Positions 41,401 through 58,848 of a stretch of DNA of 64,000 nt are shown here, piece after piece. Numbering within the stretch: position 1 is the stretch's first letter; the number at the start of each line of letters is the position of its first letter. The stretch comes from Carcharhinus longimanus (taxonomy: Eukaryota): the NCBI GenBank assembly GCA_030264375.1, contig JASCQW010000099.1:34594597-34658596 (forward strand), in the 5' to 3' direction. A program made the translations under genes and the position numbers. The notes under the pieces were generated by a model. That model ran no database searches. It had not been told where the DNA came from and was given only the letters and a program-made list of their open reading frames with translations.

Positions 41401-44400
41401 AGACTGTTCTCTTCGTGTTGGGGCATTCAACCTCTGATCTTTGGGTAAGTGTTTTCCAAGGCGGCCTTCATGACACACGACAATGCAGAGTCACGGAAAA
41501 GAGACTAATAGCAAAGTTCCGCACATATGAGGATGCCATCAACTGGGATCTTGGGTTCAATTGCCCCCCCACTTCACTCCAGCAGCGTCAGGCCACAAGC
41601 TCGCCATGTGGGGAGCTACTGTAAATCTCACTGGAGTGAAACATTCCTGGCAGGGGGAGATGCTAGTGGGCTCGGAGATTTCAATCCCAGGCCCGCTAAT
41701 GACATTTAAATTATATTAAAATTATGGAATGCATAATTTATTCAGCTCTGTGCCAATCTCCAGCATGAAACTGATGGCATCAGATATTTGGACTGAATGG
41801 GCGCCCAGCAGACAGCCCGTAAAACACCCCCCTCCCCCCGCTCGAGTCTCCTGGCCCACTGCGCTAAGAAAGCAATGCCAGGGATGGGAGACTGGCTCCC
41901 AGTGAACCCATGTCCTACCTCAGTGATACTGTCATGCCAATCCACAATACATCATGTGAACAAGCAGAGAAAAACAAAGACCGGTAATTTACACTTGAAA
42001 GCACAATTGCCAACGTAGCTTCAGACTGGAAGGAGGTACAAGGAAATTGTTGGAAAGCAGACAATGCAAACTGACACTCTACAAAATGAAAACTTTCAAC
42101 CACAAGTCTGTCTACTTTAGGATAATAATGGAAAAAGATGAGTGCTGTCCAAAGGGGAGGGTGCTAAACTGGGGGAAGGCAAGTTACAGCCAGATTAGGC
42201 ATGAGCTGATGGATACTGATTGGGAGAGGTTGTTTGCGGGTAAGTCCACGTTCGGCAAGTGGGAGGCTTTCAAGGGAAAACTGAAAAGGTTGCAGGAAAG
42301 ACATGTGCCGGTTAAGAGGAAGGATGGGAAANNNNNNNNNNNNNNNNNNNNNNNNNNNNNNNNNNNNNNNNNNNNNNNNNNNNNNNNNNNNNNNNNNNNN
42401 NNNNNNNNNNNNNNNNNNNNNNNNNNNNNNNAGATGTGCTCTTAGGCTGATTGGTGTAACAAATTGTCCCTAAATTATTCTCCCCTTAATCCGGTTTCCA
42501 ATGGGGGTACCATAAGCATAGACATGGGTCATGGGTGGAGGAGGAAAAACACATTGTTAAGATGGCGGCGCGGGCTCGTTGGGCCGAAGGGTCTGTTTCC
42601 CATGCTGTGTTGTTCTTTGTTCTTTGTTCTTTGTACATAGGCAACTTCAACATTGACAATTAAATGTTATTATTCCATTGTTGTACAGACTGTGCAATGT
42701 CATAACAGTAATTTGTGGTTGTACAACTTGAAGGGAAACTCCCATATTGGATTTAATGTCAGTGCCAACATAAACTGGTTCCTTGAATTTACCTGAATAT
42801 CGATGTAAGGATCTTTGCCATTTCATCCACTGTTTCATGCCACATTGTGGCGCACAAATATATCATCACACGGTCCGACTTCCTATTCAAAAAATGTTTT
42901 CATTTGTTACTAATATCAAATCCTTTTAAATAATGTACAATACTGGGAATTCATAGTAACTGTTACTAATTGTAATTGTGTGTTAAATATAAAGAATATT
43001 ATTTAAATCTCAACGACTTGGGAGACATTTTAGACAAATTCCCTAAACTTTGCCCAGGGAATGCCTGCTCTGCAGTTGCAAAGTTCAGGAAAATAGATGG
43101 CAGAGGCATCAGTTCCTCCTTCGTCCTCTGTGCCATTTTACCAAGATTTCTGGGGTTTTCCATTAGCTGGAACTATGTCTGCAGGAGGCAGAGACTTCTC
43201 ATTCAGATGATAAAGCTGGCATTTAAGCCAGAAAGGTGTGGCAGCAAACCAAAGAAGACCCCATATTTGTTTTCAAATACTTGCCACATCTTTAGACTAT
43301 CAGGGTTGTCAACTCTGGTTGAAGGTAGCTTGAAGGGTACACCACATGACTTCCTATCTCCACCCACCTTGCTTCTACTCTCCCTCCATTGGCCTGTTGA
43401 TCTTCATGTCATTCTGCCTTTCCACACCAATTGGAATGTGTAAAGAACCCCATGACTTAATTGGATGAATCTTGACAGTTAATCAGTTTTTTTTAGCATC
43501 AACAACATTTTCAAAAAAACATTCAAATAAAGCCATTTGTCCTGCCCTTGTGATTTTCCTCCTGAATTTGTTGCAGAGGTTTTCTGAGGATCAAGCTTTA
43601 ATATCTGGAGAGGTCAGGGCAATTCTGGGCTAATGGCATCCCTATTTGCTATCAGGGCCTTTTGGCTGCTGCTGTCTGACAGTAACCAGAAACTCCACTG
43701 CCAGGCCCATTGCCACAGACCTCTGTACCTACCAACCCTTATGAAATAAAATAAGGGGCATTTCAACCATGATATCATGAGTGAGGATGTGGAGGTGCCG
43801 GTGTTGGACTGGGGTAAACACAATAAGAAGCCTCACAACACCAGGTTAAAGTCCAACAGGTTTATTTGGTAGNNNNNNNNNNNNNNNNNNNNNNNNNNNN
43901 NNNNNNNNNNNNNNNNNNNNNNNNNNNNNNNNNNNNNNNNNNNNNNNNNNNNNNNNNNNNNNNNNNNNNNNNNNNNNNNNNNNNNNNNNNNNNNNNNNNN
44001 NNNNNNNNNNNNNNNNNNNNNNNNNNNNNNNNNNNNNNNNNNNNNNNNNNNNNNNNNNNNNNNNNNNNNNNNNNNNNNNNNNNNNNNNNNNNNNNNNNNN
44101 NNNNNNNNNNNNNNNNNNNNNNNNNNNNNNNNNNNNNNNNNNNNNNNNNNNNNNNNNNNNNNNNNNNNNNNNNNNNNNNNNNNNNNNNNNNNNNNNNNNN
44201 NNNNNNNNNNNNNNNNNNNNNNNNNNNNNNNNNNNNNNNNNNNNNNNNNNNNNNNNNNNNNNNNNNNNNNNNNNNNNNNNNNNNNNNNNNNNNNNNNNNN
44301 NNNNNNNNNNNNNNNNNNNNNNNNNNNNNNNNNNNNNNNNNNNNNNNNNNNNNNNNNNNNNNNNNNNNNNNNNNNNNNNNNNNNNNNNNNNNNNNNNNNN

Positions 44401-47400
44401 NNNNNNNNNNNNNNNNNNNNNNNNNNNNNNNNNNNNNNNNNNNNNNNNNNNNNNNNNNNNNNNNNNNNNNNNNNNNNNNNNNNNNNNNNNNNNNNNNNNN
44501 NNNNNNNGATAGTGCGACATGAACCCAAGATCCTGGTTGAGCCATCCTCATGTGTGTGGAACTTGGCTATCAGTCTCTGCTCAGCTCTGCACTGTCGTAT
44601 GTTGTGAAGAACGTTTACCCGAAGATCAGAGGCCGAATGCCCATGACCACTGAAGTGTTCACCAACAGGAAGAGAACAGTCCTGCCTGGCGATTGTTGAG
44701 TGGTGTTCATTCATCCGTTGTTGTACGACAGAGACTGATAACCAAGTTCTGCACACATGAGGATGGCCTGAACCGGGATCTTGTGTTCATGTCACACTAT
44801 TTGTAACCCTCATGACTTGCCTGGGCTTGCCATATCTCATGAGCTGTCCTGGCTGGAGACAATCTCTTTAACCTATGCTTAATGCTATCTCCACTCACAT
44901 TGTCTGCACTTTTAAGACTTGATTAGCTGTAACAACTCGCATTCTATTAATATTCTGTAAACTGAGTGTGTGTCTTTATATGCCCTGTTTGTGATCAGAA
45001 TTCCCCACTCATCTGACGAAGGGGCGGAACCCCGAAAGCTAGTGAGTGGTGTTTGCTACTAAATAAACCTGTTGGACTTTAACCTGGTGTTGTGAGACTT
45101 CATATCATGAGTGAGGGCAGTGGGGGGGTGGGGTAGATTGTTGTCGCTGACCAATTGAGCAGGGAATGGGGGTTACTAGTGAACCTAAGAGTGGGGTGAG
45201 GGGGCAGGTAATGGAAGAGCTGAATGTTGGGGTTCGGATAACCATACAGTGGTGGGGGGTTGCCTTAAAGCAACCAAAATTTACAACTTTTGTGAAATCA
45301 TAGCATTTTAAAAGTAAGAAACTGGTCATTCACTTTGAGCATTACATTGCACAGAGGAGATTTATAGACTGGTTTTGGTTGTTCAAATGGAATTTGCCTC
45401 AGGGTAAGGAATAACAGGACCAGAGAATTTCTTTCTACTTAACGCCNNNNNNNNNNNNNNNNNNNAATGATTTCCACAATAGAATGGTAATTCTGAAATC
45501 AGGTGCATTGCAATGTTGACTCCCTTCTGCTAACCAAGTTTGGAGAAAAGTGTCTTTCTGTTAAGATATCGGGAAGAAAGTATAACAGAGGTTTGTACCT
45601 TTTAATTTTCTTCTCTTTCTTTTTCTGGACACGTGTATTGAGCAGCATTGACTGTTCCATGAAGGCTGTTTCATACAACCATCGAACAAACAGCTGGGAT
45701 GTCCTTTCAATCCTTTGAATGTGTCGGCCCCACACGTAAAACGTTGAGAAGAACAGCCCTAGCCAAAAGCAGATAGCAAAGGAGCCAAGCAGTGCCAAAC
45801 TGCTGGAATCTAACACTGCTGGTGCTCTGCAAAGGCTGCGAGGAATTTCTAAAAGCAGGATTTGTACAGGGTCGCTGTCATTGGAGGTTTTTAAGGTGTG
45901 GCAGAGGCCAGTCAAGTTAAAAGTAGCCACTTCGCCATGTTTATTGGAACTATCATACAACACAATCAAAATAGCAAAAAACACAATTGGAGTGGCTAAT
46001 ATGGAAGGCAAAATGAAACTGCGTCTGACTGCATGCATTTTACACACAAGAACCCCAAACCAGTGGCAAAGGGCAGAAGAAATCACCTGTATTCCAAAGA
46101 GGCTCAAAATCATTTTTAACTCAAATTGCGAGACTGTTTTCACATCTTCCCAATTATATTCCTTGATTGGAATCCATGCTGCCACTACAGCGCCAGTAAC
46201 TAGGATTCGAACTGCATTGGTAAAAATGTATGTGATGTTTCTGGTAAGTCTCAAGCTTTTCCTTATATTTTCCATCACTTCAATTTTGCAGTACAATGTA
46301 AAATTTTCCCACCAATTGAAGGATACGATTATTAAGGCAACAATTGCAAGGCCCACATATGGTTGGATGTGTTTAAACTCATCTAAATGCTGTTGGGGAT
46401 TGTGAGCTAAAATAAAAAGCAAAAGGCCCAGGAAAACAAAGCCAAAGCCGGCCAATGGGAATAATATAGAAGGTTTGAGTGGTTTCAGCTGAAAGATTAC
46501 TTGCAGAAGAGAGGGAAGAAGGCAAACACCATTCAAAATGTACAGATTGGTTATAATGTCAAAGTGAGGCATGCAGACTAACACCAGGACTGAAGTGCCA
46601 AAAGCAACAACTGCTTCGATTATGCAAACCTGGCAAGAAAAAGAATTTAAAAATTTTAAAGCAAAATTATAAGATTGCAAACACAAGGTTAACATTGAAA
46701 TAAAGTTGGGCCAATTAGGTTCTTCACTGATTTTCAGTTCATTTAATCTACCTTGATAGATAAGTTCTGAACCCACGAGATAACTCCTTTTGCATTTACA
46801 AATTACTTCAGTAGAATTTTCAAGCCTTTCAAGTCGATGGATTTAAATATCAGGCAGTGCCAATAACAGTGGTCATCACATATACTCGAGCTGACTTCCT
46901 ATCCCTGGCATTTATGAAGCTCCATCCAGTGTAGAAATGTGCAGCTGTAGGTTTGACTTTATGTGACAGAATGTGAGATTTAAATATAGATGGTGGAATT
47001 TTCCCCAAAAATGCATCATAACAGCATGAAAATGGGAGCCCTCAATGCTGGTCTTCAGGGGGAGCCTGGCACTGCAATCTTCTGGCACTGCCAGTTTTGC
47101 TGACAGTCGGCAGCTTTCTGACGGAGGTGGGGAGGAGGGGTGGAGGGGGTGCTAGTGAAACTGGCTTCAGAGTGCTCAGGTGCCATTATGTAAGGCATCC
47201 TGAATTACTAGTGCACCGAGAGACCCCCACTATGGACATCAGTCACCTCCCTCCCCTCTTGGCGGCAGCTTGGCTACCCCCCACGATGACAGGGGTTGCT
47301 CGCATTGAGGCATCAGAACCCTTCCAATGAGGCTCCCGTAGACTACCAAAATGCCCCCTTGCTCCCTGTGCAGCCCGGCCTTGCATGAACCTCTGCTTGC

Positions 47401-50400
47401 ACCCTTTGCTGACCATCCCCTTTGCAGAGCTCCCCTTTGTTAACCATCTTTTTGTATACCTCGTCCTCTGCATATGCCCCCCCATCGTTGTGCATATCCC
47501 CCGTTGTAGCCCACCTCCACTCAGGCACCGCCCCCACTTACGCCACACCTCTTGGCACTGCCAGGGTGCCAGGTAGGCACTGCCAGGGTGCCAGGTAGGC
47601 ACTGCCTGATGTACTACTGACTGCGCACTGATCAGCCATGACCACCTGGCTAATGGCATCCGATCATCCTGGCGTGGCCACAGCGCCTGGTCTCCAATAT
47701 GGCAAAGCAGTAGTGATTCTTATCAGCGTCATGCCTAGCCGATGACGCTCGGGAACATCTGAGGTGGGGGAGAACGGGGGTGCAGAAACAGCTGTACCAA
47801 TCCCAGTAACAATGCTAATAGAAAAGGCGCGAAGCCTTTCTCACTGGCAAAACAGGGCCGGGAAGATAGCAATCCAATTCGCACCGGACACAAATCAGAT
47901 TTTTGACCTCACACACTATCAACCCGTGCGGTGAGCTGGTAAGATTGTGCCCAAAGTGTGAAATGTACTTGTCATATTTAATAGACCGTGAATTAAATAT
48001 TCAATTCATCTTTTTCTTTCTCTTTGCTTCCAGTGTGTGTTCTAAAACAATAACTTTGGAACTACTTTTCGTTAATTTTTTTCCAAAGTAACAACTAAAT
48101 TACTCCTGCAGAAAGATCACACTTGGATGAGTGAACTCCACAAATTTACACTATTTAAACTAAATTTGTCGACATTGACTATTTCCTAAAATCTCTTGTT
48201 TTGTATTAATGCCACGTCAGTACATATATAAAGTCACAATAATATTTGTATAACTTGAAAAGACATTTAAATTAGATTTCTGTTTGAACGTACTGAAGGA
48301 GATGGAATGTCTAAGACTTAAAATTGTCTTGTACATCTTGTGCTGAATTAATCTGTCTAAGATTCTTTTCCCTGTCATTTAAGCAGGTAATTACTTAAAA
48401 AATAAATTTGAATTCTGATTCATTGCTTGGTAATTTCAGGTTAAATAAATCTATGCAAAGTGATTGATGATTCAGCTCTGCTGAATGATAATTAGCACTG
48501 GCTGATCTCCAAAATCTAAACATTTCCAAAAGTTTATAAACTAAAGGATAGATGGTTCAGCTTACCATTCCCAGAATACTCAGTGGAGGAGTAATGGATG
48601 ATCCAAATGCCGTTTTCCATAAAGCCTTTGCCAATGCCAGAACATTAGGTACCAACAATGCACAAGCTAAGACAAGGTGAATGAAAGGCTTGTTTTCAAA
48701 GGGTGAGTGAGTGTTTGATATGCTGATCAATAAGAGAAGACTGGTCTGCAAAATATAGAAGTGTACATTCTTCAGTATTCACACCACTCAACTCAACATG
48801 TCAAAATGGGACAAAATAGTGACTAATCACAAGCTATTACTGGACAGTTTCAAAAGTAATTAGCTCCCTTGGAGTTAAAAAGGATATTGAAACAATTTTT
48901 GGCATTTTCCATGCTTGGTCTTCAAGAGATGGGTTTTGTGTCTCTCCTAAACTGACATGTTTATCAAGTTCATCCCAGCATCAGGTCGCTTGATGGAAGG
49001 GAAATTTTTCCAACCAGTTCTGCACTATTCATTGCTGTCAACTAGGATCGGATAAGACATATTGCCAGTCCTGACAGAGATCCAGCATATCTGGGTCCTG
49101 CTGAAAATTCCTGAGCTTCTACTGTACTTGGAATCGGTTGCATTTTTGGACACATGCATCACCATCAAGGACAGTCACTTCAGCACTTCACTGTACCACA
49201 AGCCCACGGATAACCTCACGATGCTCCAATTCTCCAGCTTCCACCCTAAACAAATTAAAGAAGCCATCCCTTACGGACAAGCCCTCCTTATACACAGGAT
49301 CTGCCCAGATGAGGAGGATTGCAACAGACACCTCCAGGTGCTGAAAGATGCCCTCATAAGAACAGGATATGGCATTCGACTCATCAATCAACAGTTCTGA
49401 CACGCCACAGTGAAAAACCGCACAATCTCCTCAGAAGACAGAGTATCCTTCGTTGTCCAGTACTTCGCCGGAGCGGAGAAGCTATGACCTCTTCTCCATG
49501 TCATTGATGAAGGCGAACATCTTGCCAAAGCCATCTCCACAACCCCACTTCTTGCCTTCAAACAACCGCACAACCTCAAACAGACCACTGTCCCCAGCAA
49601 ACTACCCAGTCTTCAGGAGAACAGTGACCACAACACCACAAAACCCTGCCATAGCAACCTCTGCAAGATGTGCCGGATCATCGACACAGATGCCATCATC
49701 TCACGTGAGAGCACCATCCATCAGGTACACGGTACACACTCTTGCAAATCGGCCAACAATGTTTACCTGATACGCTGCAAGAAAGGATGTCCTGAGGCAT
49801 GGTACATTGGGGAGACCATGCAGACGCTATGACAACAGATGAATGAACACCACTCGACAATCACCAGGCAAAAGTGTTCTCTTCCTGTTGGTGAACACTT
49901 CAGCGGTCACGGGCACTTGGCCTCTGATCTTTGGGTAAGCATTCTCCAAGGCGGCCTCCACGACACGCGGAGTTGCTGAGCAGAGACTGATAGTCANNNN
50001 NNNNNNNNNNNNNNNNNNNNNNNNNNNNNNNNNNNNNNNNNNNNNNNNNNNNNNNNNNNNNNNNNNNNNNNNNNNNNNNNNNNNNNNNNNNNNNNNNNNN
50101 NNNNNNNNNNNNNNNNNNNNNNNNNNNNNNNNNNNNNNNNNNNNNNNNNNNNNCATTGTCTGTACCTTTAAGACTTGATTACCTGTAAAGACTCGCATTC
50201 CAACCATTATTTTGTAAATTGAGTTTGTGTGTTTATATGCCCTGTTTGTGAACTGAACTCCCACTCACCTGACGAAGGAGCAGCGCTCCAAAAGCTAGTG
50301 ACTTTTGTTACCAAATAAACCTGTTGGACTTTATCCTGGTGTTGTGAGGCTTCTTACTGCTTCTACTGTGCCCCAGGACAACTTATATCAGGAACATATT

Positions 50401-53058
50401 GCTGGCCAGAAGGAAATTTGAGGTTAGGATGTTTCCATAACTGGAGAGCTCAGTATAACCTCCCTTCAGTTCTAACTTGCAAACATAACACTCAAACATA
50501 CATACACTCTGGGTGGCATTTTCTGGTCGCATTTGACCCGAAACCGGGAAATCCCGCCCGAGGTCAACGGACCTTTCCAGGGTTCGCCTGTTGCCTGCTC
50601 CGATTCCCATGGTGGGCGGCACAGTAAATTTTGCCCCTCTAACTTCCAAAACTAAATTACTGAATTACAAACAGTAACATATCGTTACTCTCTCAGGATA
50701 GCTCGTGAACACTGAAAACAATTGGAGCAACTGTATTATTTGTTCCTGCTCCTTAGCATTTGAAGTGAGCATGAAAATGAGAGTGAGCCTGGAAGTTATA
50801 CTGAACTAGATGGTTTTACTCATGAACCTTATCAGCTGTATGGGGGGGTGCTCTCTTCGCTATGCCTTGGATGTCAATTAGTCACAGGCACAATCATTAG
50901 CACTCTTGCTGGTGAGTCAGGATCGCTTCTCGGCCTTTTGGTTGAAGTCATTAGGTTACATTTTGGCTTCATTTGAAGCAATTTTTAAAAGCAACATCTC
51001 GGCCTTTTGGCTAAGATGCAAATGAGATCAAGCCTTGGAGGAGAAGCTATGCCTACTCCAATCAGCTTGGATCATGTAGATCAAGCCCAAGACAGGAGGT
51101 GAGANNNNNNNNNNNNNNNNNNNNNNNNNNNNNNNNNNNNNNNNNNNNNNNNNNNNNNNNNNNNNNNNNNNNNNNNNNNNNNNNNNNNNNNNNNNNNNNN
51201 NNNNGATCAAGCCTTGGAGGAGGAGCTATGCCTACTCCAATCAGCTTGGATCATGTAGATCAAACCCAAGACAGGTGGTGAGAGCCCTGTCCTGTCAGCT
51301 TGGATCGGGAATGTCCCAACTTGTTGGGACTCTGAATTGGCTTTAATTTGAATTGATTGGAATGGAATGAAGTTAAAAAAAAACAGTCTCAATGTTGTAT
51401 TTTTAAGAAGCGCAAGGTTTGGGATATTTTGAGGTAATTCTTTGTACAAAGTGAATCAAAATCTTACTGTGGAAAAATAAGAAAAAGCTGAAAATGCTTG
51501 GTAGGACAGGCATAATCTGTGGAGGTCAAGTTAACATTTCAGATTGAGGACCTTTCATCAAATTCTGCTTCAAAAACCTTACCCCTTGTATTTCATCAGC
51601 CTGATGGATCTGTGTCAACTATGGCTTAGTGATTTCATTCTTCTCTCTGAGGTACGAGGTACTGAGTTCAAACCTCAATGATGTGGAGATGCCGGCATTG
51701 GACTGGGTAAACACAGATTTACCTTTACACTTTAAACTAAAGATTTACACTTAAACCTGGTGTTGTGAGACTTCAAACTTCAAACCAGAGAACTGGGAAA
51801 AAAATCTAGGTGGATACTCCAATGGAGTGCTGTGCTGTCATAGGTACATACCTTTGTGATAATACATTAAACTGAATTCTCTGTTTGCACTCTCAGGTGG
51901 ATGTAAAATATGCCATGGTACTGTTCAAAGAGAAATTATCCTAGTCCCCTGGTCAACATTTATCTCTCAACAAACATTCAAAAATCTAGCTATTTATTTC
52001 ATTGCTATTTGTATTTTTCAAGAAGTATTACATTGATTATAAGATTGCTTTGGGGCATTCTGAGGTCTTAAGAAGTGCTTATATATTGTGATCAATAGAT
52101 ATTTAGCAAAAAAGGCATTATACTACTGTTGTTTAACAAACACTGTAAATTATTTGCAACATGACAAAACTTAAGTTTTTTTAATAATTCCAGGACTATT
52201 TCTCCAAGTATTTACTAACCTTGCTGAGAAAGAGAAATCCCAGCACACAAACTCCAAAGGTAAAGCAAATTATATACTGCAGGAGCAGCACAAATTTCCC
52301 AGTGATTTCTTCTTCATCATTTATTGTTTTCAAAGTAAAAGGATCCCACGTTTTCCTGAAACTAAACGAAAAAATATATAATATATAATAACGCACCCCC
52401 TGTTCTGTGGACTTTAAAGATTGTTCATTGTAAATATAAAATTTGGTAACTTGTTTTAGGTAAAATTGTTTAATATTTTACATAATATTTCAAATATAGC
52501 ACAATAAAGATAATTATTAATAGTTGAAGTAGAGAAGGTAGGAAGGTGGATAGTACATATCAGAATTCGTTTACATCTCAGTGTCTGTTACACATTCTTG
52601 CAAAATACGAAGTTTTCAAATTTGTAAAATTTATTGCAATTAATTTGACTACTGAAGGAAACTGATTATCAGATGGCCAAATATGAGAGTTTTTAATTGC
52701 TTATTGTAATGGAAACGCTTTGCAGTTTTATCAGCCCTTAGTTCTTTTAGAGGCTTCCCCTACACCACGCATTCGGACGTTTCAACTGCACACAGATGCA
52801 AAACGTATTGCTCCAAATAAACACAGTGCTCTCAGATTTGCAATTGCTCTTTTAATTTAGCAAAACAACTCTAAATCCAGACATATAATATCAAGAATTC
52901 ATTGGCATATGACAAATATTTATGTTTCAGAGCATTTTAATGAATTGTTTATGTGTTTCAAACTGTACATCAAGAGCACGTTACAAAAACTTTTTAAAAA
53001 GTTACCTGCTTCGGCGTTGCCTTTCGTGCTCATTGATATCTTGATCCTTATTCTCCAT
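2382..53058 (-). CDS. chs: Chitin synthase (glycosyltransferase family 2, metazoan type); 18 coding exons reconstructed, 1208 aa, last exon/stop not located
   Basis: The spliced translation is open across 18 GT-AG exons with consistent phases. It contains CATMWHET, TPYGGR, KDKQKIRHKKRWSQ, LALDGD, QKFEYAVGHW, CSPGCFSLYR, QYDQGEDRWLCT, QRRRW and NNVSWGTRE, with N- and C-terminal multi-transmembrane regions. Confidence 0.96.
2550..2767 (-). CDS. chs: Chitin synthase exon 17 (ATFLYFIINVLWII...EPLSFMFL...QFLTMLYH-R)
   Basis: Absent from the ORF track. tttcag| acceptor, AG|GTATT donor, 218 nt, with EP and QF-x-x-ML-x-HR motifs. Confidence 0.93.
3362..3472 (-). CDS. chs: Chitin synthase exon 16 (AENPFWNDLINLYLKPIEEDKERQAEIAKQLKALRNK), coiled-coil
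   Basis: ctacag| acceptor, AAG|GTAAAC donor, 111 nt. Contains the conserved E-x-x-FW...YL-P...L-x-x-LRNK block. Confidence 0.93.
3657..3721 (-). CDS. chs: Chitin synthase exon 15 (WISNLQGQSLHIQLVEEELDE)
   Basis: gtgtag| acceptor, GAA|GTAAGT donor, 65 nt, phase 1 to 0. Confidence 0.82.
4450..6400 (-). mobile_element. Old CR1-like LINE fragments with nested SINEs (V-SINE about 5020-5153; tRNA-derived SINE about 5455-5835)
   Basis: Degenerate CR1 ORF2-like sequence, SINE head GGCAGCAAGGTGGTGCAGTGGTTAACACTGCTGCCTCACAG. Confidence 0.6.
6489..6529 (-). CDS. chs: Chitin synthase micro-exon 14 (S-VIEEEEVEPRIED-N)
   Basis: ttccttcag| acceptor, A|GTGAGT donor, 41 nt. It supplies the phase 2 to phase 1 change needed between exons 13 and 15. 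Confidence 0.8.
7625..9150 (-). mobile_element. 5'-truncated CR1 LINE (middle in gap)
   Basis: GKSCLTNLIEFFEGVTKKVDEGSAVDVVY RT motif at 8795-8889, and a CR1-type 3' tail near 7625-7815. Confidence 0.9.
9224..9575 (-). CDS. chs: Chitin synthase exon 13 (EMVKEN...LHPQEF...NNVSWGTRE...YAD)
   Basis: tttag| acceptor, AG|GTAAC donor, 352 nt, with LHPQE and SWGTRE motifs. Confidence 0.96.
10511..10690 (-). CDS. chs: Chitin synthase exon 12 (AFTFVFNW...IMSII-G), TM helices
   Basis: ttacag| acceptor, G|GTGAGT donor, 180 nt. Confidence 0.93.
13147..13431 (-). CDS. chs: Chitin synthase exon 11 (EDRWLCTLLLQQGWRVEY...NQRRRWVPST...LMIA-G)
   Basis: aacag| acceptor, G|GTAATT donor, 285 nt. Contains the catalytic EDR and processivity QRRRW signatures. 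Confidence 0.97.
13870..17385. mobile_element. Degraded PIF/Harbinger DNA transposon (Myb/SANT-like gene on +, DDE transposase on -)
   Basis: The minus ORF 15214-15615 reads MTPVKRP...YNEAH...LLKMCFNCLDYSGRALLYCP...CSVLHNLA plus an acidic tail, matching a HARBI1-like C-terminus. Myb-like remnants lie near 14110-14600. Boundaries approximate. Confidence 0.8.
19540..20020 (+). mobile_element. CR1-type LINE 3' end
   Basis: YEENLNRLGLYSLELRRTRDDIIEIFKIL, typical of the CR1 ORF2 C-terminus, followed by the tail aatggcctactcctgatcctatttcttatg. Confidence 0.85.
20225..20534 (-). CDS. chs: Chitin synthase exon 10 (PMVWYQKFEYAVGHW...CSPGCFSLYR...TEGHHFVQYDQ-G), interrupted by a false 100-N gap
   Basis: caaag| acceptor, G|GTATGT donor. 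Both gap flanks carry TGATGTCCT, and merging them gives 201 nt in frame. Confidence 0.94.
22680..22980 (-). mobile_element. V-SINE/HE1-type tRNA-derived SINE (other copies about 12790-13070 +, 17665-17930 +, 21300-21540 +, 26805-27128 -, 32040-32265 +, 34330-34480 -, 35885-36180 -, 59325-59540 +)
   Basis: Head GGTGGCACAATGGTTAGCACTGCTGCCTCACAG...GGTTCGATTC (A/B boxes), central TGGGTTTCCTCC block, CR1-like tail. Confidence 0.85.
24507..24648 (-). CDS. chs: Chitin synthase exon 9 (TEKENTYILALDGDIDF...GAACGRVHPTGT-G)
   Basis: aaaag| acceptor, G|GTATGA donor, 142 nt. Contains DxD (DGD) and GAACGR-HP motifs. Confidence 0.95.
26428..26529 (-). CDS. chs: Chitin synthase exon 8 (IMYMYYLLGWKL...ENALK)
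   Basis: tttcag| acceptor, AAG|GTAAAG donor, 102 nt, with the MYMYYLLG motif. Confidence 0.95.
28690..29543. mobile_element. Non-autonomous Harbinger-type element (similar GC-rich TIR elements about 110-1430, 24721-25745, 46990-47952, 55005-55765)
   Basis: Termini GGGGGCAATTCTCCC ... GGGAGAATCCCAGCC are imperfect inverted repeats of the same style as the Harbinger ends. Confidence 0.6.
29860..30040 (-). CDS. chs: Chitin synthase exon 7 (TFSSEKQ...TPYGGR...HLKDKQKIRHKKRWSQ)
   Basis: Absent from the ORF track. tttcag| acceptor, CAA|GTATGT donor, 181 nt. Confidence 0.96.
31673..31806. mobile_element. Short MITE (similar: about 22196-22410 and 50510-50637)
   Basis: Perfect 12-bp TIR GCTGGAATTCTC / GAGAATTCCAGC with an internal hairpin. 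Confidence 0.7.
32503..32676 (-). CDS. chs: Chitin synthase exon 6 (LDKYNP...FETHVYFDDAF...VNEYV...DIY-R)
   Basis: ccacag| acceptor, AG|GTATT donor, 174 nt, with the ExHxxFDDAF motif. Confidence 0.95.
33900..34290 (+). mobile_element. LINE (RTE-like) APE endonuclease fragment
   Basis: SIHSP...EDEFYEELD...LLRDFNVK resembles the APE-domain YAPT...FY..L...GDFNA motif. Confidence 0.6.
34647..41900. mobile_element. PIF/Harbinger composite: Myb/SANT accessory gene copies (+, about 35270-36917 and 37018-39050) and convergent DDE transposase pseudogene (-, about 39650-40884)
   Basis: AWEAVAA...RTGKQCCKKINDL (Myb/SANT-like) near 35395-35483. GDLCGISQSAVHNCVKEITD and YNEAH...LLKMQFRCLDRS on the minus strand. 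GGGC-AGAATTTT left terminus. Nested SINE, CR1 and Penelope insertions. Confidence 0.85.
41118..41560 (+). mobile_element. Penelope-like fragment
   Basis: HRICSDEEDCNRH...LKDALVRT and WYIGET-like segments homologous to 49125-50360. Confidence 0.8.
42115..42635 (+). mobile_element. CR1 ORF2 fragment followed (after gap) by SINE 3' end with (TTCTTTG)n tail
   Basis: LNWGKASYSQIRHEL...DWERLF...WEAFK. The tail is shared with 17800-17930, 18764-18898 and 33780-33890. Confidence 0.75.
42793..42882 (-). CDS. chs: Chitin synthase exon 5 (KSDRVMIYLCATMWHETVDEMAKILTSIF-R)
   Basis: Absent from the ORF track and read by hand. aatag| acceptor, AG|GTAAAT donor, 90 nt, with the CATMWHET motif. Confidence 0.95.
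43785..45105. mobile_element. Penelope-like element with inverted arrangement (minus-strand copy about 43785-44725 fused to plus-strand 3' segment about 44728-45100)
   Basis: QRMNEHHSTIARQDCSLPVGEHFSGHGH on the minus strand. The same 3'-terminal sequence (aataaacctgttggactttaacctggtgttgtgag) is present in opposite orientations at both ends. Confidence 0.85.
45005..45049 (+). ncRNA. Minimal type I hammerhead ribozyme motif in a Penelope-like element tail
   Basis: CCACTCAT-CTGACGA-A-GGGG-CGGAA-CCCC-GAAA-GC-TA-GTGAGTGG: both core boxes, helix II and an 8-bp helix I. Confidence 0.7.
45599..46629 (-). CDS. chs: Chitin synthase exon 4, large N-terminal multi-TM exon (VCIIEAVVAFG...WWENF...CKMHAVRRSF...KKIK-R)
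   Basis: ccag| acceptor, AG|GTAC donor, 1031 nt open. Contains SFNWWENF and CK-x-x-x-x-x-SF motifs of the CHS N-terminal domain. Confidence 0.93.
48566..48745 (-). CDS. chs: Chitin synthase exon 3 (TSLLLLIS...LSILGM)
   Basis: ttgcag| acceptor, ATG|GTAAG donor, 180 nt, phase 0/0, hydrophobic. Confidence 0.9.
49125..50360 (+). mobile_element. Penelope-like retroelement, 5'-truncated (RT C-terminus, GIY-YIG endonuclease, 3' tail with mutated hammerhead)
   Basis: FLDT...LYHKPTD...SSFHP...AIPYGQAL..HRIC RT-thumb motifs, then NVYLIRC...WYIGET...EHF GIY-YIG motifs, with frameshifts and stops. Confidence 0.92.
50922..51383 (+). mobile_element. U2 snRNA-headed, hairpin-rich, A-tailed retroposon (candidate SINE)
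   Basis: ATCGCTTCTCGGCCTTTTGG equals U2 nt 1-20, and TCTCGGCCTTTTGGCTAAGAT equals U2 nt 7-27 at 50997-51017. These are followed by non-U2 hairpins, an (AATTG/AATGG)n-like tract and A9. Confidence 0.6.
51620..52085 (+). mobile_element. Ancient Deu-domain SINE (SacSINE1/AmnSINE-like) with nested Penelope remnant; related copy about 3890-4310 (-)
   Basis: caggtggatgtaaaa...ccatggtactgttcaaaga...ctggtcaacatttatctctcaac resembles the Deu domain, followed by an L2-like tail. Family assignment is from memory. Confidence 0.55.
52220..52355 (-). CDS. chs: Chitin synthase exon 2 (KTWDPFTLKTINDEEE...FLFLSK)
   Basis: ttcag| acceptor, AAG|GTTAGT donor, 136 nt. Contains a WDPF motif and the first TM helix. 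Confidence 0.9.
53006..53058 (-). CDS. chs: Chitin synthase coding exon 1 (MENKDQDINEHERQRRS-R)
   Basis: ATG in AAAATGG context. The donor AG|GTAAC is phase 2 and joins in frame to exon 2 (R-KTWDPF). Confidence 0.75.
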
Positions 53059-55959: not shown

Positions 55960-58848
55960 AGTGGAAGTGAGTCCATGACGGGAAGTGAGTCCGTGACTGG
56001 GAGTGAGTTTGCAACAGAGTGAATCAGTAACAGAGTGAGTCTATGATTAGGAGTGAGTCTGTGATGGGGATTGGACCTTTGACGGAGTGAGCCTGTGACG
56101 TGGAGAGGGTCAGTGACAGGGAGTGAATCTGTGACGGGGAGTGAGCCTGTGACTGGGAATGGGGCTGTAACTGGGAGTGAGTCTGTGACAGTGAGTGAGT
56201 CTGTGACTGGGAGTGAGTCTGTGACAGTGAGTGAGTCTGTGAGGGGGAGTGAGTCTGTGACTGGGAGTGAGTCTGTGACTGGGAGTGAGTCTGTGACAGT
56301 GAGTGAGTCTGTGATGGGGAGTGAGTCTGTGACTGGGAGTGAGTCTGTGACAGTGAGTGAGTCTGTGACAGGGAGTGAGTCTGTGACTGGGAGTGAGTCT
56401 GTGACAGTGAGTGAGTCTGTGACTGGGAGTGAGTCTGTGACTGGGAGTGAGTCTGTGACAGTGAGTGAGTCTGTGATGGGGAGTGNNNNNNNNNNNNNNN
56501 NNNNNNNNNNNNNNNNNNNNNNNNNNNNNNNNNNNNNNNNNNNNNNNNNNNNNNNNNNNNNNNNNNNNNNNNNNNNNNNNNNNNNNNNNNNNNNNNNNNN
56601 NNNNNNNNNNNNNNNNNNNNNNNNNNNNNNNNNNNNNNNNNNNNNNNNNNNNNNNNNNNNNNNNNNNNNNNNNNNNNNNNNNNNNNNNNNNNNNNNNNNN
56701 NNNNNNNNNNNNNNNNNNNNNNNNNNNNNNNNNNNNNNNNNNNNNNNNNNNNNNNNNNNNNNNNNNNNNNNNNNNNNNNNNNNNNNNNNNNNNNNNNNNN
56801 NNNNNNNNNNNNNNNNNNNNNNNNNNNNNNNNNNNNNNNNNNNNNNNNNNNNNNNNNNNNNNNNNNNNNNNNNNNNNNNNNNNNNNNNNNNNNNNNNNNN
56901 NNNNNNNNNNNNNNNNNNNNNNNNNNNNNNNNNNNNNNNNNNNNNNNNNNNNNNNNNNNNNNNNNNNNNNNNNNNNNNNNNNNNNNNNNNNNNNNNNNNN
57001 NNNNNNNNNNNNNNNNNNNNNNNNNNNNNNNNNNNNNNNNNNNNNNNNNNNNNNNNNNNNNNNNNNNNNNNNNNNNNNNNNNNNNNNNNNNNNNNNNNNN
57101 NNNNNNNNNNNNNNNNNNNNNNNNNNNNNNNNNNNNNNNNNNNNNNNNNNNNNNNNNNNNNNNNNNNNNNNNNNNNNNNNNNNNNNNNNNNNNNNNNNNN
57201 NNNNNNNNNNNNNNNNNNNNNNNNNNNNNNNNNNNNNNNNNNNNNNNNNNNNNNNNNNNNNNNNNNNNNNNNNNNNNNNNNNNNNNNNNNNNNNNNNNNN
57301 NNNNNNNNNNNNNNNNNNNNNNNGGGAGTGTGTGAAGGGGAGTGAGTCTGTGACGGGGAGTGAGTCTCTGACTGGGAGTGAGTCTGTGACGGGGACTGAG
57401 TCTGTGACTGGGAGTGAGTCAATGACTGGGAGTGGGTCAGTGACTGGGAGTGAATTTGTGACTAGGAGTGGATCTGTGACAGATAATGAGCAGGGCAGAT
57501 TAACTGCCACCCGGATCCCTAGGCTGAGCTTTAGTAAAGTCATCTGACGTGCCTCACTCTTCGTTGAGTAGAATAAAGTCACATTAAGTGACATTAAATA
57601 ATTTATATTGTTGTACTCTGTATTATGTACTACATATATAATATCATTCAGTTATTTGAATCAATTAAAGTCCTTGTATTCATTTATTTTTCATTTTCTT
57701 TACATTTGTACTTTAAAAAGCTTCTGTGTTTTTTGGTTTCCAAAGAGTTGATAACAGTATGTAAATCAACAGATCGAAGCATGTCTGATTCAATGCGCGT
57801 GACTGCCAGATGACTAAGTTTCCCATCGCTCATGGTTGAGTGCAAATACATTTTAATCCTCTTCAGTGCCAAAAATGAATGCTGACCTGAACAGTTAGTG
57901 ATCATTAAGGACAGATAAATTCTAAAGCAAATGTATGTATTTGGATACACCTCGTGCCAGAGCTCGATACATCCCAGTGACGGTGACATTTATTTTGTAT
58001 TTATTTGCATGTATTACAAGTCCAGGGGTGAAGCTCCTCTATTTATAGATATTTGTTACATTAATTCACCCACGGGGTATAGCTATGAAAATTTATTCAC
58101 CCTTAAAAGGGTTAAACCAATTGTTTTTTGCTCTCGGGCCCCCCTCCCTTTTGGACCCCTCGGCTTAAGCCTGCTCAGCCTAATGGTTAATCCACCACTG
58201 GTAATGAGTCAGTGACGGGGAGTGAGTCTGTGATGGGGAGTGAGTCTGTGACGGGAGTGAGTCAGTGACGGGGAGTGAGTCTGTGATGGGGAGTGAGTCT
58301 GTGACGGGAGTGAGTCTGTGACTGGGAGTGAGTCTGTGATGGGGAGTGAGTCTTTGATGGGGAGTGCATCTGTGAATGGGAGTGGGTCTGTGAGTGGGAG
58401 TGAGTCTGTGACGGGAGTGAGTCCATGACGGGAGTGAGTCTTTGATGGGGAGTGAGTCTTTGATGGGGAGTGAGTCTATGAATGGGAGTGGGTCTGTGAG
58501 TGGGAGTGAGTCTGTGACTGGGAGTGAGTCTGTGAATGGGAGTGAGTCCATGACGGGATTGAGTCTTTGATGGGGAGTGCATCTGTGAATGGGAGTGGGT
58601 CTGTGAGTGGGAGTGAGTCTGTGACGGACAGTGTGCCTGTGACAGGAAGTGTAATCTATGACGGGGAGTGAGTCTGTGATGGGGAGTGAGTCCATGATAA
58701 GAAATGAGTCTGTGATTGGTAGTGAGTTTGTGACTGGGACTGGGGTTGTGACTGGGAGTGGGGTTGTGACTGGGAGTGAGTCTGTGACGAGGAGTGAGTC
58801 CATGATGGGGAGTGAGTCCGTGACGGGGAATGAATCCGTGACGGGAAG
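55960..58848. repeat. About 18-bp minisatellite (GGGAGTGAGTCTGTGACT-like) split by the hAT insertion and gaps
   Basis: Dozens of tandem 17-19 bp units are visible. They generate the spurious VTGSES/VTDSLP ORFs. Confidence 0.97.
57491..58200 (-). mobile_element. Internally deleted hAT DNA transposon (710 bp)
   Basis: Imperfect TIRs CAGGGCAGATTAAC / GTTAATCCACCACTG and 8-bp TSD ATAATGAG/GTAATGAG. The residual ORF YPN...TNCSGQHSFLALKRIKMYLHSTMS..KLSHLAVTRIESD matches the hAT C-terminal dimerisation domain. Confidence 0.88.

Follow-up and report, generated by a model that had tools for sequence, protein, structure and literature searches.

SINEs headed by small nuclear RNA (snRNA) sequence have been described from crocodilians as SINEU, and Kojima 2015 found none outside that group (PMC4494074). 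The Discussion of that paper leaves unanswered how such elements, which lack an internal promoter, come to be transcribed; by the same account, the Tx1-Mar LINEs prefer the insertion sites of the SINEs that they are believed to mobilise (PMC4494074). A junction at U2 nt 39 marks the insertion site of two further LINE groups, Keno and Utopia (PMC4640811; PMC6136364). The papers searched contained no report of snRNA-headed SINEs beyond crocodilians, so that by these papers the U2-headed design would be new for a shark. Here, we followed up a candidate of this kind that had been predicted from sequence in a 64,000-nt stretch of the Carcharhinus longimanus genome (the window), and found it to be one damaged member of an abundant family of U2-headed retroposons.

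The window copy is gapped and internally deleted

The layout of the copy is given in Table 1. Both U2 matches of the original prediction were exact, and the AGATCAAG word at 51025, the GATTG/AATTG-like tract, the A9 run (51375-51383) and the lack of a target site duplication (TSD) were all found as described. The predicted span kept its coordinates, but not its 462-nt length: a 100-N gap and a 79-nt overlap lie inside the element, and the span therefore overstates a real copy of ~283 nt. Specifically, 51026-51104 recurs at 51205-51283 with 3 differences across the 100-N run. Since comparable overlaps flank 100-N gaps at two U2 loci (L035 and L041), with a shorter one at L120, the duplicated 79 nt are likely an assembly artefact.

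Alignment to the family majority sequence revealed a 36-nt deletion, flanked by two TTGG words and private to this copy, which removed U2 nt 21-40 and the beginning of an antisense arm, and with them the tip of the predicted head hairpin. That the element leaves U2 after nt 20 and lacks the branch-point recognition sequence GTAGTA is accurate for the window copy but not for the family, whose head, as seen in other copies, comprises U2 nt 1-40 including GTAGTA. Instead of the AATAAA found in the young subfamily, this copy carries a mutated form. The copy lies antisense to its host, a chitin synthase gene with exons at 52417-52214 and 48757-48563 (tblastn with shark chitin synthases).

Table 1. 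Features of the U2-headed copy and its host intron, in window positions
Feature	Position	Strand	Basis
Host: first coding intron of chitin synthase gene	48758..52213	-	tblastn of shark chitin synthases
U2 snRNA nt 1-20, leftover of the family's U2 1-40 head	50922..50941	+	identical (100%) to L031, a U2 gene of this genome
TTGG at joint of 36-nt deletion	50938..50941	+	alignment to family majority sequence; fold of intact copy
Rest of arm that, where intact, can pair with U2 nt 11-39	50942..50965	+	pairing count vs shuffles
Short predicted hairpin, then Sm-like U tract without 3' G	50966..50991	+	sequence
Second stretch of U2 (stem-loop I, nt 7-27)	50997..51017	+	100% to L031; in both subfamilies
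Body start: AGATCAAG (U2 nt 24-31), first twin hairpin, second begun	51025..51104	+	sequence
Assembly gap, 100 N, flanked by 79-nt overlap, likely artefact	51105..51204	.	sequence
Twin predicted hairpins with same closing stem	51205..51306 (51205-51252, 51258-51306)	+	predicted folds
Third predicted hairpin, with the sole compensatory pair between subfamilies	51313..51330	+	predicted folds
GATTG/AATTG-like tract and A9 tail, without TSD	51335..51383	+	sequence

The family is dispersed and comprises two subfamilies

Exact searches returned 1,046 matches to the head-body junction and 690 to the tail, with 0 for the reversed controls, which excludes single-copy status; a first look had given 2,903 candidates, 40 of which scored 92-100%. 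With more than 1,000 dispersed copies, a fixed junction, a common 3' end and TSDs in a minority, the predicted chondrichthyan U2-headed SINE was supported. The family is non-coding, poly(A)-tailed and ~320 nt long, with a young and an old subfamily (majority sequences of 318 and ~303 nt) that have the A tail in common. All copies have a non-U2 body of ~280 nt, which rules out a processed pseudogene made of U2 sequence only and agrees with the earlier view that this is no ordinary truncated U2 pseudogene. Of 39 copies free of gaps, selected through their body or tail, 28 had their 5' end in U2 nt 1-30; extra U2, SINE or LINE pieces were all that the upstream flanks had in common. The fixed junction was present in 31 of 60 loci, many of the remainder being gapped or truncated. 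Identity to the majority sequence was ~94-96%, a value biased upward by the choice of copies. Subfamily-specific changes run across head and body, the old subfamily carrying its own changes inside the U2 head. TSDs of 10-19(23) nt accompanied 4/39 young and 7/28 old copies, compared to 0.2 and 0.0 in controls. Master copies, and not independent chimeras, gave rise to the family, which spread as a unit. It was also noted that one copy reaches 51.9 bits with the Rfam U2 model (cut-off 46), mostly from nt 1-40, and the family probably contaminates U2 annotations.

An antisense arm is predicted to fold over the U2 head

An antisense arm follows the head and is predicted to fold over it. Against U2 nt 11-39, the arm forms 18 Watson-Crick and 7 G-U pairs over 29 positions, a total of 25 that was reached by 0/5000 shuffles in a test designed only after the fold had been seen. 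In the RNA, the arm would thereby hide the branch-point recognition sequence. The predicted folds of the head (z -5.84) and the full copy (z -5.47) stood out, whereas for the body alone the fold was no more stable than in shuffled sequence (z -1.1 to -1.6). When the structure was taken from the young set only, subfamily differences fell on 12/180 paired vs 17/93 unpaired positions (p 0.006); on a joint structure, the counts were 4/150 and 25/120. Of the 10 pairs in the young-only structure that changed, the old subfamily has lost eight, and a single pair is compensatory. The second U2 segment (nt 7-27) is kept in both subfamilies. The original prediction had reported the absence of an Sm site; none of canonical form is present, but an Sm-like AAT5-6A tract without the 3' G occupies family position 94-105, close to U2's own site (98-108).

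Family copies and a LINE join U2 at the same base

At least three family copies continue into U2 from nt 39. A search for an A-run followed by U2 nt 39-52 gave 9 matches (control 0), all of them poly(A) ends joined to U2: three belong to this SINE family (L066, L068, and L063, the last identical with L059), four are LINE 3' ends, one (L064) has an old-type tail only (0/2000 shuffles), and one is a bare A-run. An additional copy, L060, reads U2(6-40)-SINE-U2(39-191) plus flank and ends where dispersed U2 retrocopies end, at flank position 230. L066, with U2 39-53 followed by A9, and L064, with no U2 head upstream, favour co-transcription with U2, though these are single cases. Alternatively, the U2-SINE-U2 copies may stem from targeted insertion into U2 retrocopies already in place, and would then reflect targeting rather than co-transcription. 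Behind four U2 upstream flanks, no SINE copy was found among the loci examined. The U2 arrays look poorly assembled.

Most SINE copies lie outside U2-like sites. Across 90 3' flanks there was no target consensus beyond a T at +1 in 45, and these flanks had no positional target in common except U2, SINE and LINE, with no Mariner-type preference.

The LINE using the same U2 nt 39 site encodes ZCCHC3-type ORF1 domains, an APE-type endonuclease (Exo_endo_phos), RVT_1 and a weak zf-RVT. We take it to be Tx1/Keno-like from its domains and target site, not from a tree; none of the 120 listed among its 245 homologues is named Keno or Tx1. By BLAST, a U2 piece stands at 16 of 28 distinct LINE 5' ends, and the other 5' ends scanned carried U3 in 4/4 and U1 also in three, including composite U1-U3-U2(39-52) heads. 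Two LINE copies (L163 and L086) are preceded by the U2 upstream flank and U2 1-35/41. Of 89 SINE-picked loci, 6 had LINE sequence and 3 another SINE no more than 40 nt away in the same orientation; some adjacent elements have a TSD between them (L209). Neither the full-length LINE of L156 (4,844 nt; best E 0.63) nor the LINE parts of 32 loci matched the SINE body significantly. The tail, which had been proposed for comparison with LINE 3' ends, failed to link the two, with just 9 nt in common (546/2000 shuffles). The suggested connection to a U2-targeting LINE thus stands for a likely mobiliser and not for a parent.

Origin and spread of the family

We consider it probable that the window copy is an internally deleted member of a ~320-nt, poly(A)-tailed, U2(1-40)-headed family, likely copied by the Keno-like LINE and likely transcribed from sources inside U2 genes. 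Its ancestor would have entered a U2 gene at nt 38/39, and the snRNA promoter upstream would then have made a U2(1-40)-body RNA. The RNA may end at its own A tract (the young subfamily having AATAAA) or continue through U2 39-191 and the 3' flank. LINE ORF2 would prime on the A tail and insert mostly at unrelated sites, while occasional insertion back into U2 would renew source copies. The LINE reverse transcriptase may also jump onto U2, U1, U3 or 5S RNA, adding extra 5' pieces.

The same retroposon and mobiliser could be served by RNA polymerase III acting from internal boxes of U2 origin, with no need for a U2-gene source. In both subfamilies, TGGCTAAG resembles an A box (family positions 17 and 122) and GATCAAGCC a B box (140 and 193), an assignment presumed from the box consensus, and the lack of a source behind a U2 promoter among the loci examined fits as well. 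However, both motifs are simply U2 sequence, and most copies retain the 5' part upstream of a T6 run. Moreover, the T4, T6 and T4 runs at family positions 14, 96 and 119 would be expected to stop this polymerase, an argument made for oligo-T in PMC4494074 too, and we regard this route as unlikely. A classical Pol III SINE with a tRNA, 5S or 7SL head was rejected, given 7 loci without tRNA and the internal T4/T6 runs. A variant U2-like gene, encoding a small cellular RNA that serves the host and giving rise to the dispersed copies as its retrocopies, would suit the lower rate of change in stems than in loops, the Sm-like tract at U2's position, the score above the U2 cut-off and the high copy number in contigs of other organisms. 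We hold such a gene to be decidedly unlikely, however, as the subfamilies succeed each other with many fixed differences, some inside the U2 head, copies interrupt U2 as an insertion, with nt 40 before them and nt 39 after, the score comes mostly from nt 1-40, and no unique conserved source locus was seen among the loci examined.

Descent by internal deletion from a U2-targeting LINE would explain why U2 head and target site are common to both elements, why the hairpin base resembles the LINE's first bases over 13 nt (11/13) and why GAATAAAGT precedes both A tails. Yet the body has no sequence significantly in common with the one LINE family sampled, and therefore the SINE is not a deleted form of that LINE; a different LINE family might be the parent, but this origin appears highly improbable. 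Some copies (L014, L015, L103, L127 and L026) have gained additional pieces of U2 or U3 at the 5' end, joined at differing breakpoints, which indicates that template switching is common here, as would be expected if the set were a sum of independent chimeras between U2 and other RNAs and not a family. Such a view is scarcely credible against the fixed junction, its number of exact matches and of loci, and an old subfamily with its own changes inside the head.

Beyond a probable U2-gene source, a more tentative and rather doubtful reading is that of a SINE lineage with no promoter of its own, a U2-gene parasite throughout shark evolution, renewing its sources by homing to the Keno site, made by the U2 promoter and with the arm selected to hide the branch-point recognition sequence. 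If true, the transcription of snRNA-headed SINEs would be explained, and the selected arm would keep the chimeric RNA from poisoning splicing; the fold-back suggests a rule for how U2-headed RNA avoids disturbing it. As the family is young and abundant, and occurs within U2 at a single base alongside a likely LINE partner, the transcription question becomes testable. The family could also supply presence/absence markers for shark phylogeny.

Comparison with known systems

The shark family has the traits of SINEU, i.e., a U2-derived head, <500 nt, no coding capacity and a poly(A) tail, and its target preference and snRNA heads are common with a LINE that we presume from its domains to be Tx1-type. 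Like SINEU-1 as described in PMC4494074, it has multiple snRNA segments, an unrelated body, occasional TSDs (~10 nt in SINEU-1), oligo-T tracts, repeated 5' snRNA additions, tandem insertions, no tail-sharing LINE, and a partner LINE with snRNA heads. It differs in its host (a shark vs crocodilians only), in its preferred site (U2 nt 38/39 vs Mariner-N4) and in the antisense arm over the head, a feature on which the PMC4494074 text examined is silent. The heads of the crocodilian Tx1-Mar LINEs derive from U1 or U2 (PMC4494074), whereas the shark LINE also has U3 and U1-U3-U2(39-52) composites and targets U2. SacSINE1 and CmiSINE are chondrichthyan SINEs too, but with tRNA heads and L2 tails, and the text on them in PMC5499810 has no mention of snRNA. 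Utopia uses the same U2 site, with relaxed targeting in some lineages, but has a restriction-like endonuclease (PMC4640811), whereas 4/4 LINE ends at the shark U2 site resemble the APE-type family. Keno has the same 3' junction at U2 nt 39 (PMC4640811, PMC6136364); the shark LINE resembles it in its APE-type endonuclease, its reverse transcriptase, its insertion before U2 nt 39 and the U2 on both sides of some copies, but is mostly dispersed, 28 of 30 3' ends being followed by neither U2 nor SINE, i.e., its targeting is relaxed, while the SINE differs from Keno in being non-coding and in having no body in common with its partner LINE.

A dispersed family of U2-headed SINEs

The U2-headed element in the window was found to be one copy of a real SINE family, about 320 nt long and poly(A)-tailed, with a young and an old subfamily. 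In keeping with the original prediction of a new snRNA-headed SINE, its copies are dispersed: a body query gave 2,903 first-look candidates, with all 40 that were scored at 92 to 100%, and an old-type query gave 3,270. Exact patterns matched 690 times for the tail and 1,046 times for the fixed head-body junction (reversed controls, 0), and both counts set a minimum for the young subfamily. Young copies had a mean identity of 95.4% to their majority sequence (94.3% in 11 copies not picked by score), and the 30 best-scoring old copies had 93.5% to theirs; single copies were also present at 72 to 85%.

The 5' side was interrupted by N gaps at 21 of 60 young loci, which were excluded from the length and target site duplication (TSD) counts. 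Of the 39 copies without gaps, which had been selected by their body or tail, 28 started within U2 nt 1-30 and the remainder were 5'-truncated. TSDs of at least 10 nt flanked 4 of these 39 young copies, one of them in a tandem-repeat flank (shuffled pairings, 0.2), and 7 of 28 old copies (shuffled pairings, 0.0). L193, a locus reached through a LINE locus, was left out of the TSD and adjacency counts. The flanks showed no shared transposon target, and ordinary insertion sites had no U2-like consensus. The upstream part of L064 was considered as a sister family and ruled out, being single copy.

The SINE body was present in 22 of the 23 public runs listed, under several organism codes, and in 12 of them at half or more of its words. 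Two DNA runs from different coded organisms, either of which may be the source species, held 1,555 and 3,873 contigs matching the body, and loose ends of these contigs extended into the second U2 segment and the old-type tail. No RNA data set was identified among the listed runs with the body; two runs that we guess to be RNA gave 105 and 96 body contigs, from which strand, start and transcription are not readable.

Anatomy and predicted fold

From its 5' end, the element consists of U2 nt 1-40, an antisense arm complementary to U2 nt 11-39, a short hairpin and an Sm-like U tract, followed by U2 nt 7-27 and a pair of hairpins that share a closing stem and begin with U2 nt 24-31. Next come a third hairpin and a GATTG-like tract, and the A tail is preceded by AATAAA in the young subfamily and by TATAAA in the old one. 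In a region picked after the fold had been seen, 25 of 29 arm positions pair with U2 nt 11-39, 7 of them via G-U (0 of 5000 shuffles); the test is strong only with G-U pairs counted, and identity alone gave a weak result (55 and 228 of 2000 shuffles). At family positions 43-57, the arm differs from perfect antisense of U2 nt 25-39 by three A-to-G changes and one C-to-T change, with G-U pairing kept in every case; one candidate explanation would be A-to-I editing of the stem that became fixed.

Compared with shuffles, the predicted fold was more stable for the head (z -5.84) and the whole copy (z -5.47), and no better for the body alone (z -1.6 and -1.1). With L180 left out, differences between the subfamilies fell mostly at unpaired positions, with p 0.006 on the young-only structure and p 1.5e-6 on a joint structure that is biased toward this result. 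There was only one compensatory pair between subfamilies, and 8 of 10 changed pairs break in the young-only structure.

The window copy and its surroundings

Both U2 matches, together with the word AGATCAAG and the terminal A9, were confirmed at the positions proposed, and the flanks of this copy, when checked, again gave no TSD. The original prediction had overlooked two features. One is a 100-N gap, after which the preceding 79 nt recur with 3 differences. Because overlaps across similar N gaps occur elsewhere in the assembly (L035, L041, L120), and given the 5' gaps of the young loci, this overlap is likely an assembly artefact, and conceivably a real partial duplication. The other is the loss of 36 nt between two TTGG words, which takes out the top of the head hairpin and resembles what a polymerase skipping over a stable stem might leave. 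The proposed lack of GTAGTA thus holds for the window copy, as a result of the deletion, and fails for intact copies, which carry U2 to nt 40 including this motif.

Across the whole window, Rfam gave 0 matches at the gathering threshold, and the sole signal below it was U2 7-26 (E 0.29). The copy sits in antisense orientation within the first coding intron of a chitin synthase gene. For the largest exon of this gene, the 8 best named relatives were sharks (78 to 93%), followed by rays and chimaera (61 to 73%) and bony vertebrates (at most 45%).

Coordinates of features in the window and at one further locus
Feature	Location	Strand	Description
U2-headed SINE	window 50922..51383		window copy
N gap	window 51105-51204		100 N within window copy
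Chitin synthase gene	window 2364-52417	minus	multi-exon, about 17 coding pieces (tblastn); spans most of window
Tandem repeat array	window 55962-58845		18-nt unit, gapped
Fragments with reading frames	window 49056-49996 and 43833-44786		presumably resemble the 3' part of a Penelope-type (GIY-YIG) retroelement
5S rRNA copy	L059:2108-2226	(-)	full length, joined straight to 5' end of U2-SINE-U2 copy

SINE copies inside U2

Among 30 of 48 U2 matches looked at, two loci (L059 and L060) read U2 head, SINE, A run and then U2 from nt 39. Junctions of an A run with U2 nt 39-52 were found 9 times (control, 0): four were the 3' ends of LINE copies, three were SINE copies, L059 among them, and the other two were an old-type tail and a bare A run. 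The same 3' flank, U2 nt 39, is described for Keno and Utopia in the accessible text of PMC4640811 and PMC6136364. L060 stops at position 230, counted over U2 and its flank, as do most dispersed retrocopies of the L031-type U2 gene; L066 carries U2 39-53 followed by A9, and at L064 the upstream side lacks a U2 head. Such loci are consistent with retrocopying of a read-through transcript of a U2 gene that carried the SINE. Targeted insertion into pre-existing U2 retrocopies would also account for some of them. At L059, another repeat fragment splits the SINE just past the head.

The U2 genes come in no fewer than four variants whose upstream flanks are unrelated (L031, L032, L034, L061), and L034 is tandemly repeated with a unit length of about 1,045 nt. 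More divergent U2 sequences lie on small AT-rich contigs (L033, L058), which may be contamination. Many dispersed U2 retrocopies (L036-L044, L049, L051, L057) extend into the 3' flank of the gene by about 30-50 nt, as from a 3'-extended precursor, and L051 and L057 start at the target site, with nt 37-39 of U2.

A U2-targeting LINE as the likely partner

The SINE is associated with a LINE that has ZCCHC3-type domains in ORF1, as well as an endonuclease of the Exo_endo_phos type, RVT_1 and a zf-RVT match below threshold; we take this LINE to be Tx1-type. We call it Keno-like following the definition in the accessible text of PMC4640811; none of the matches listed for it was named Keno or Tx1, and our literature search gave no confirmation of a ZCCHC3-Tx1 link. 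Copies of the LINE are dispersed, one 3' end alone yielding 822 candidates, and 28 of 30 3' ends had neither U2 nor SINE behind them. A U2 piece was detected by BLAST at 16 of 28 distinct 5' ends, and four further 5' ends that were scanned all matched U3, three of them also U1. At L163 and L086, a LINE copy directly follows the U2 upstream flank and U2 1-35/41. One LINE subfamily (L179, L181, L185, L190) has a composite head running from a U1 5' part through a U3 snoRNA 5' part to U2 nt 39-52, and the same head lies upstream of the SINE at L026.

At 6 of 89 SINE-picked loci the LINE was present in the same orientation no more than 40 nt away, and at 3 of 89 another SINE copy was; chance would give far less than one LINE-SINE adjacency, on a rough estimate with at most 10,000 LINE ends in 2.68 Gb. 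L156 is an array of LINE-SINE-LINE-SINE-SINE, and at L106 LINE sequence lies upstream of the SINE across an N gap.

Proposed origin and alternatives

We propose that the SINE was born, and is renewed, by insertion at U2 nt 38/39, that it would be transcribed from the upstream U2 promoter, and that the LINE would mobilise it in trans. The extra 5' pieces may have been added by template jumping, and the arm is predicted to mask the branch-point recognition sequence of U2. What counts against this source is that no SINE copy stood behind a U2 promoter among the loci examined, two upstream-flank searches having given 4 matches each, none with the SINE. Transcription by Pol III from box-like words in the element is kept as a rival, as is a functional variant snRNA as the source.

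A deleted LINE is a further rival. The SINE body had no significant match to the LINE, the comparison of the SINE tail with LINE 3' ends, suggested in the original prediction, found only 9 nt in common, and no LINE with the SINE's tail occurred across the 60 young loci. Given the unmatched body and the short shared tail, the proposed mobilisation in trans probably involves recognition of the SINE through its A tail.

Relation to known snRNA-headed elements

The literature searched, with most subscription papers outside its reach, held no report of snRNA-headed SINEs in sharks; in the accessible text of PMC4758252, PMC5499810, PMC5786205, PMC5381603 and PMC5753468, SINEU is given for crocodilians only, as a class, or goes unmentioned. 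The family may already be entered in Repbase or Dfam. The nearest description is that of crocodilian SINEU-1 with its Tx1-Mar LINEs (PMC4494074, accessible text). The shark SINE differs from SINEU-1 in lacking its Mariner target, and its partner LINE carries a U3-derived head that is absent from that description, but the SINE shows the SINEU class features that were tested, a likeness to SINEU-1 at the level of described features.
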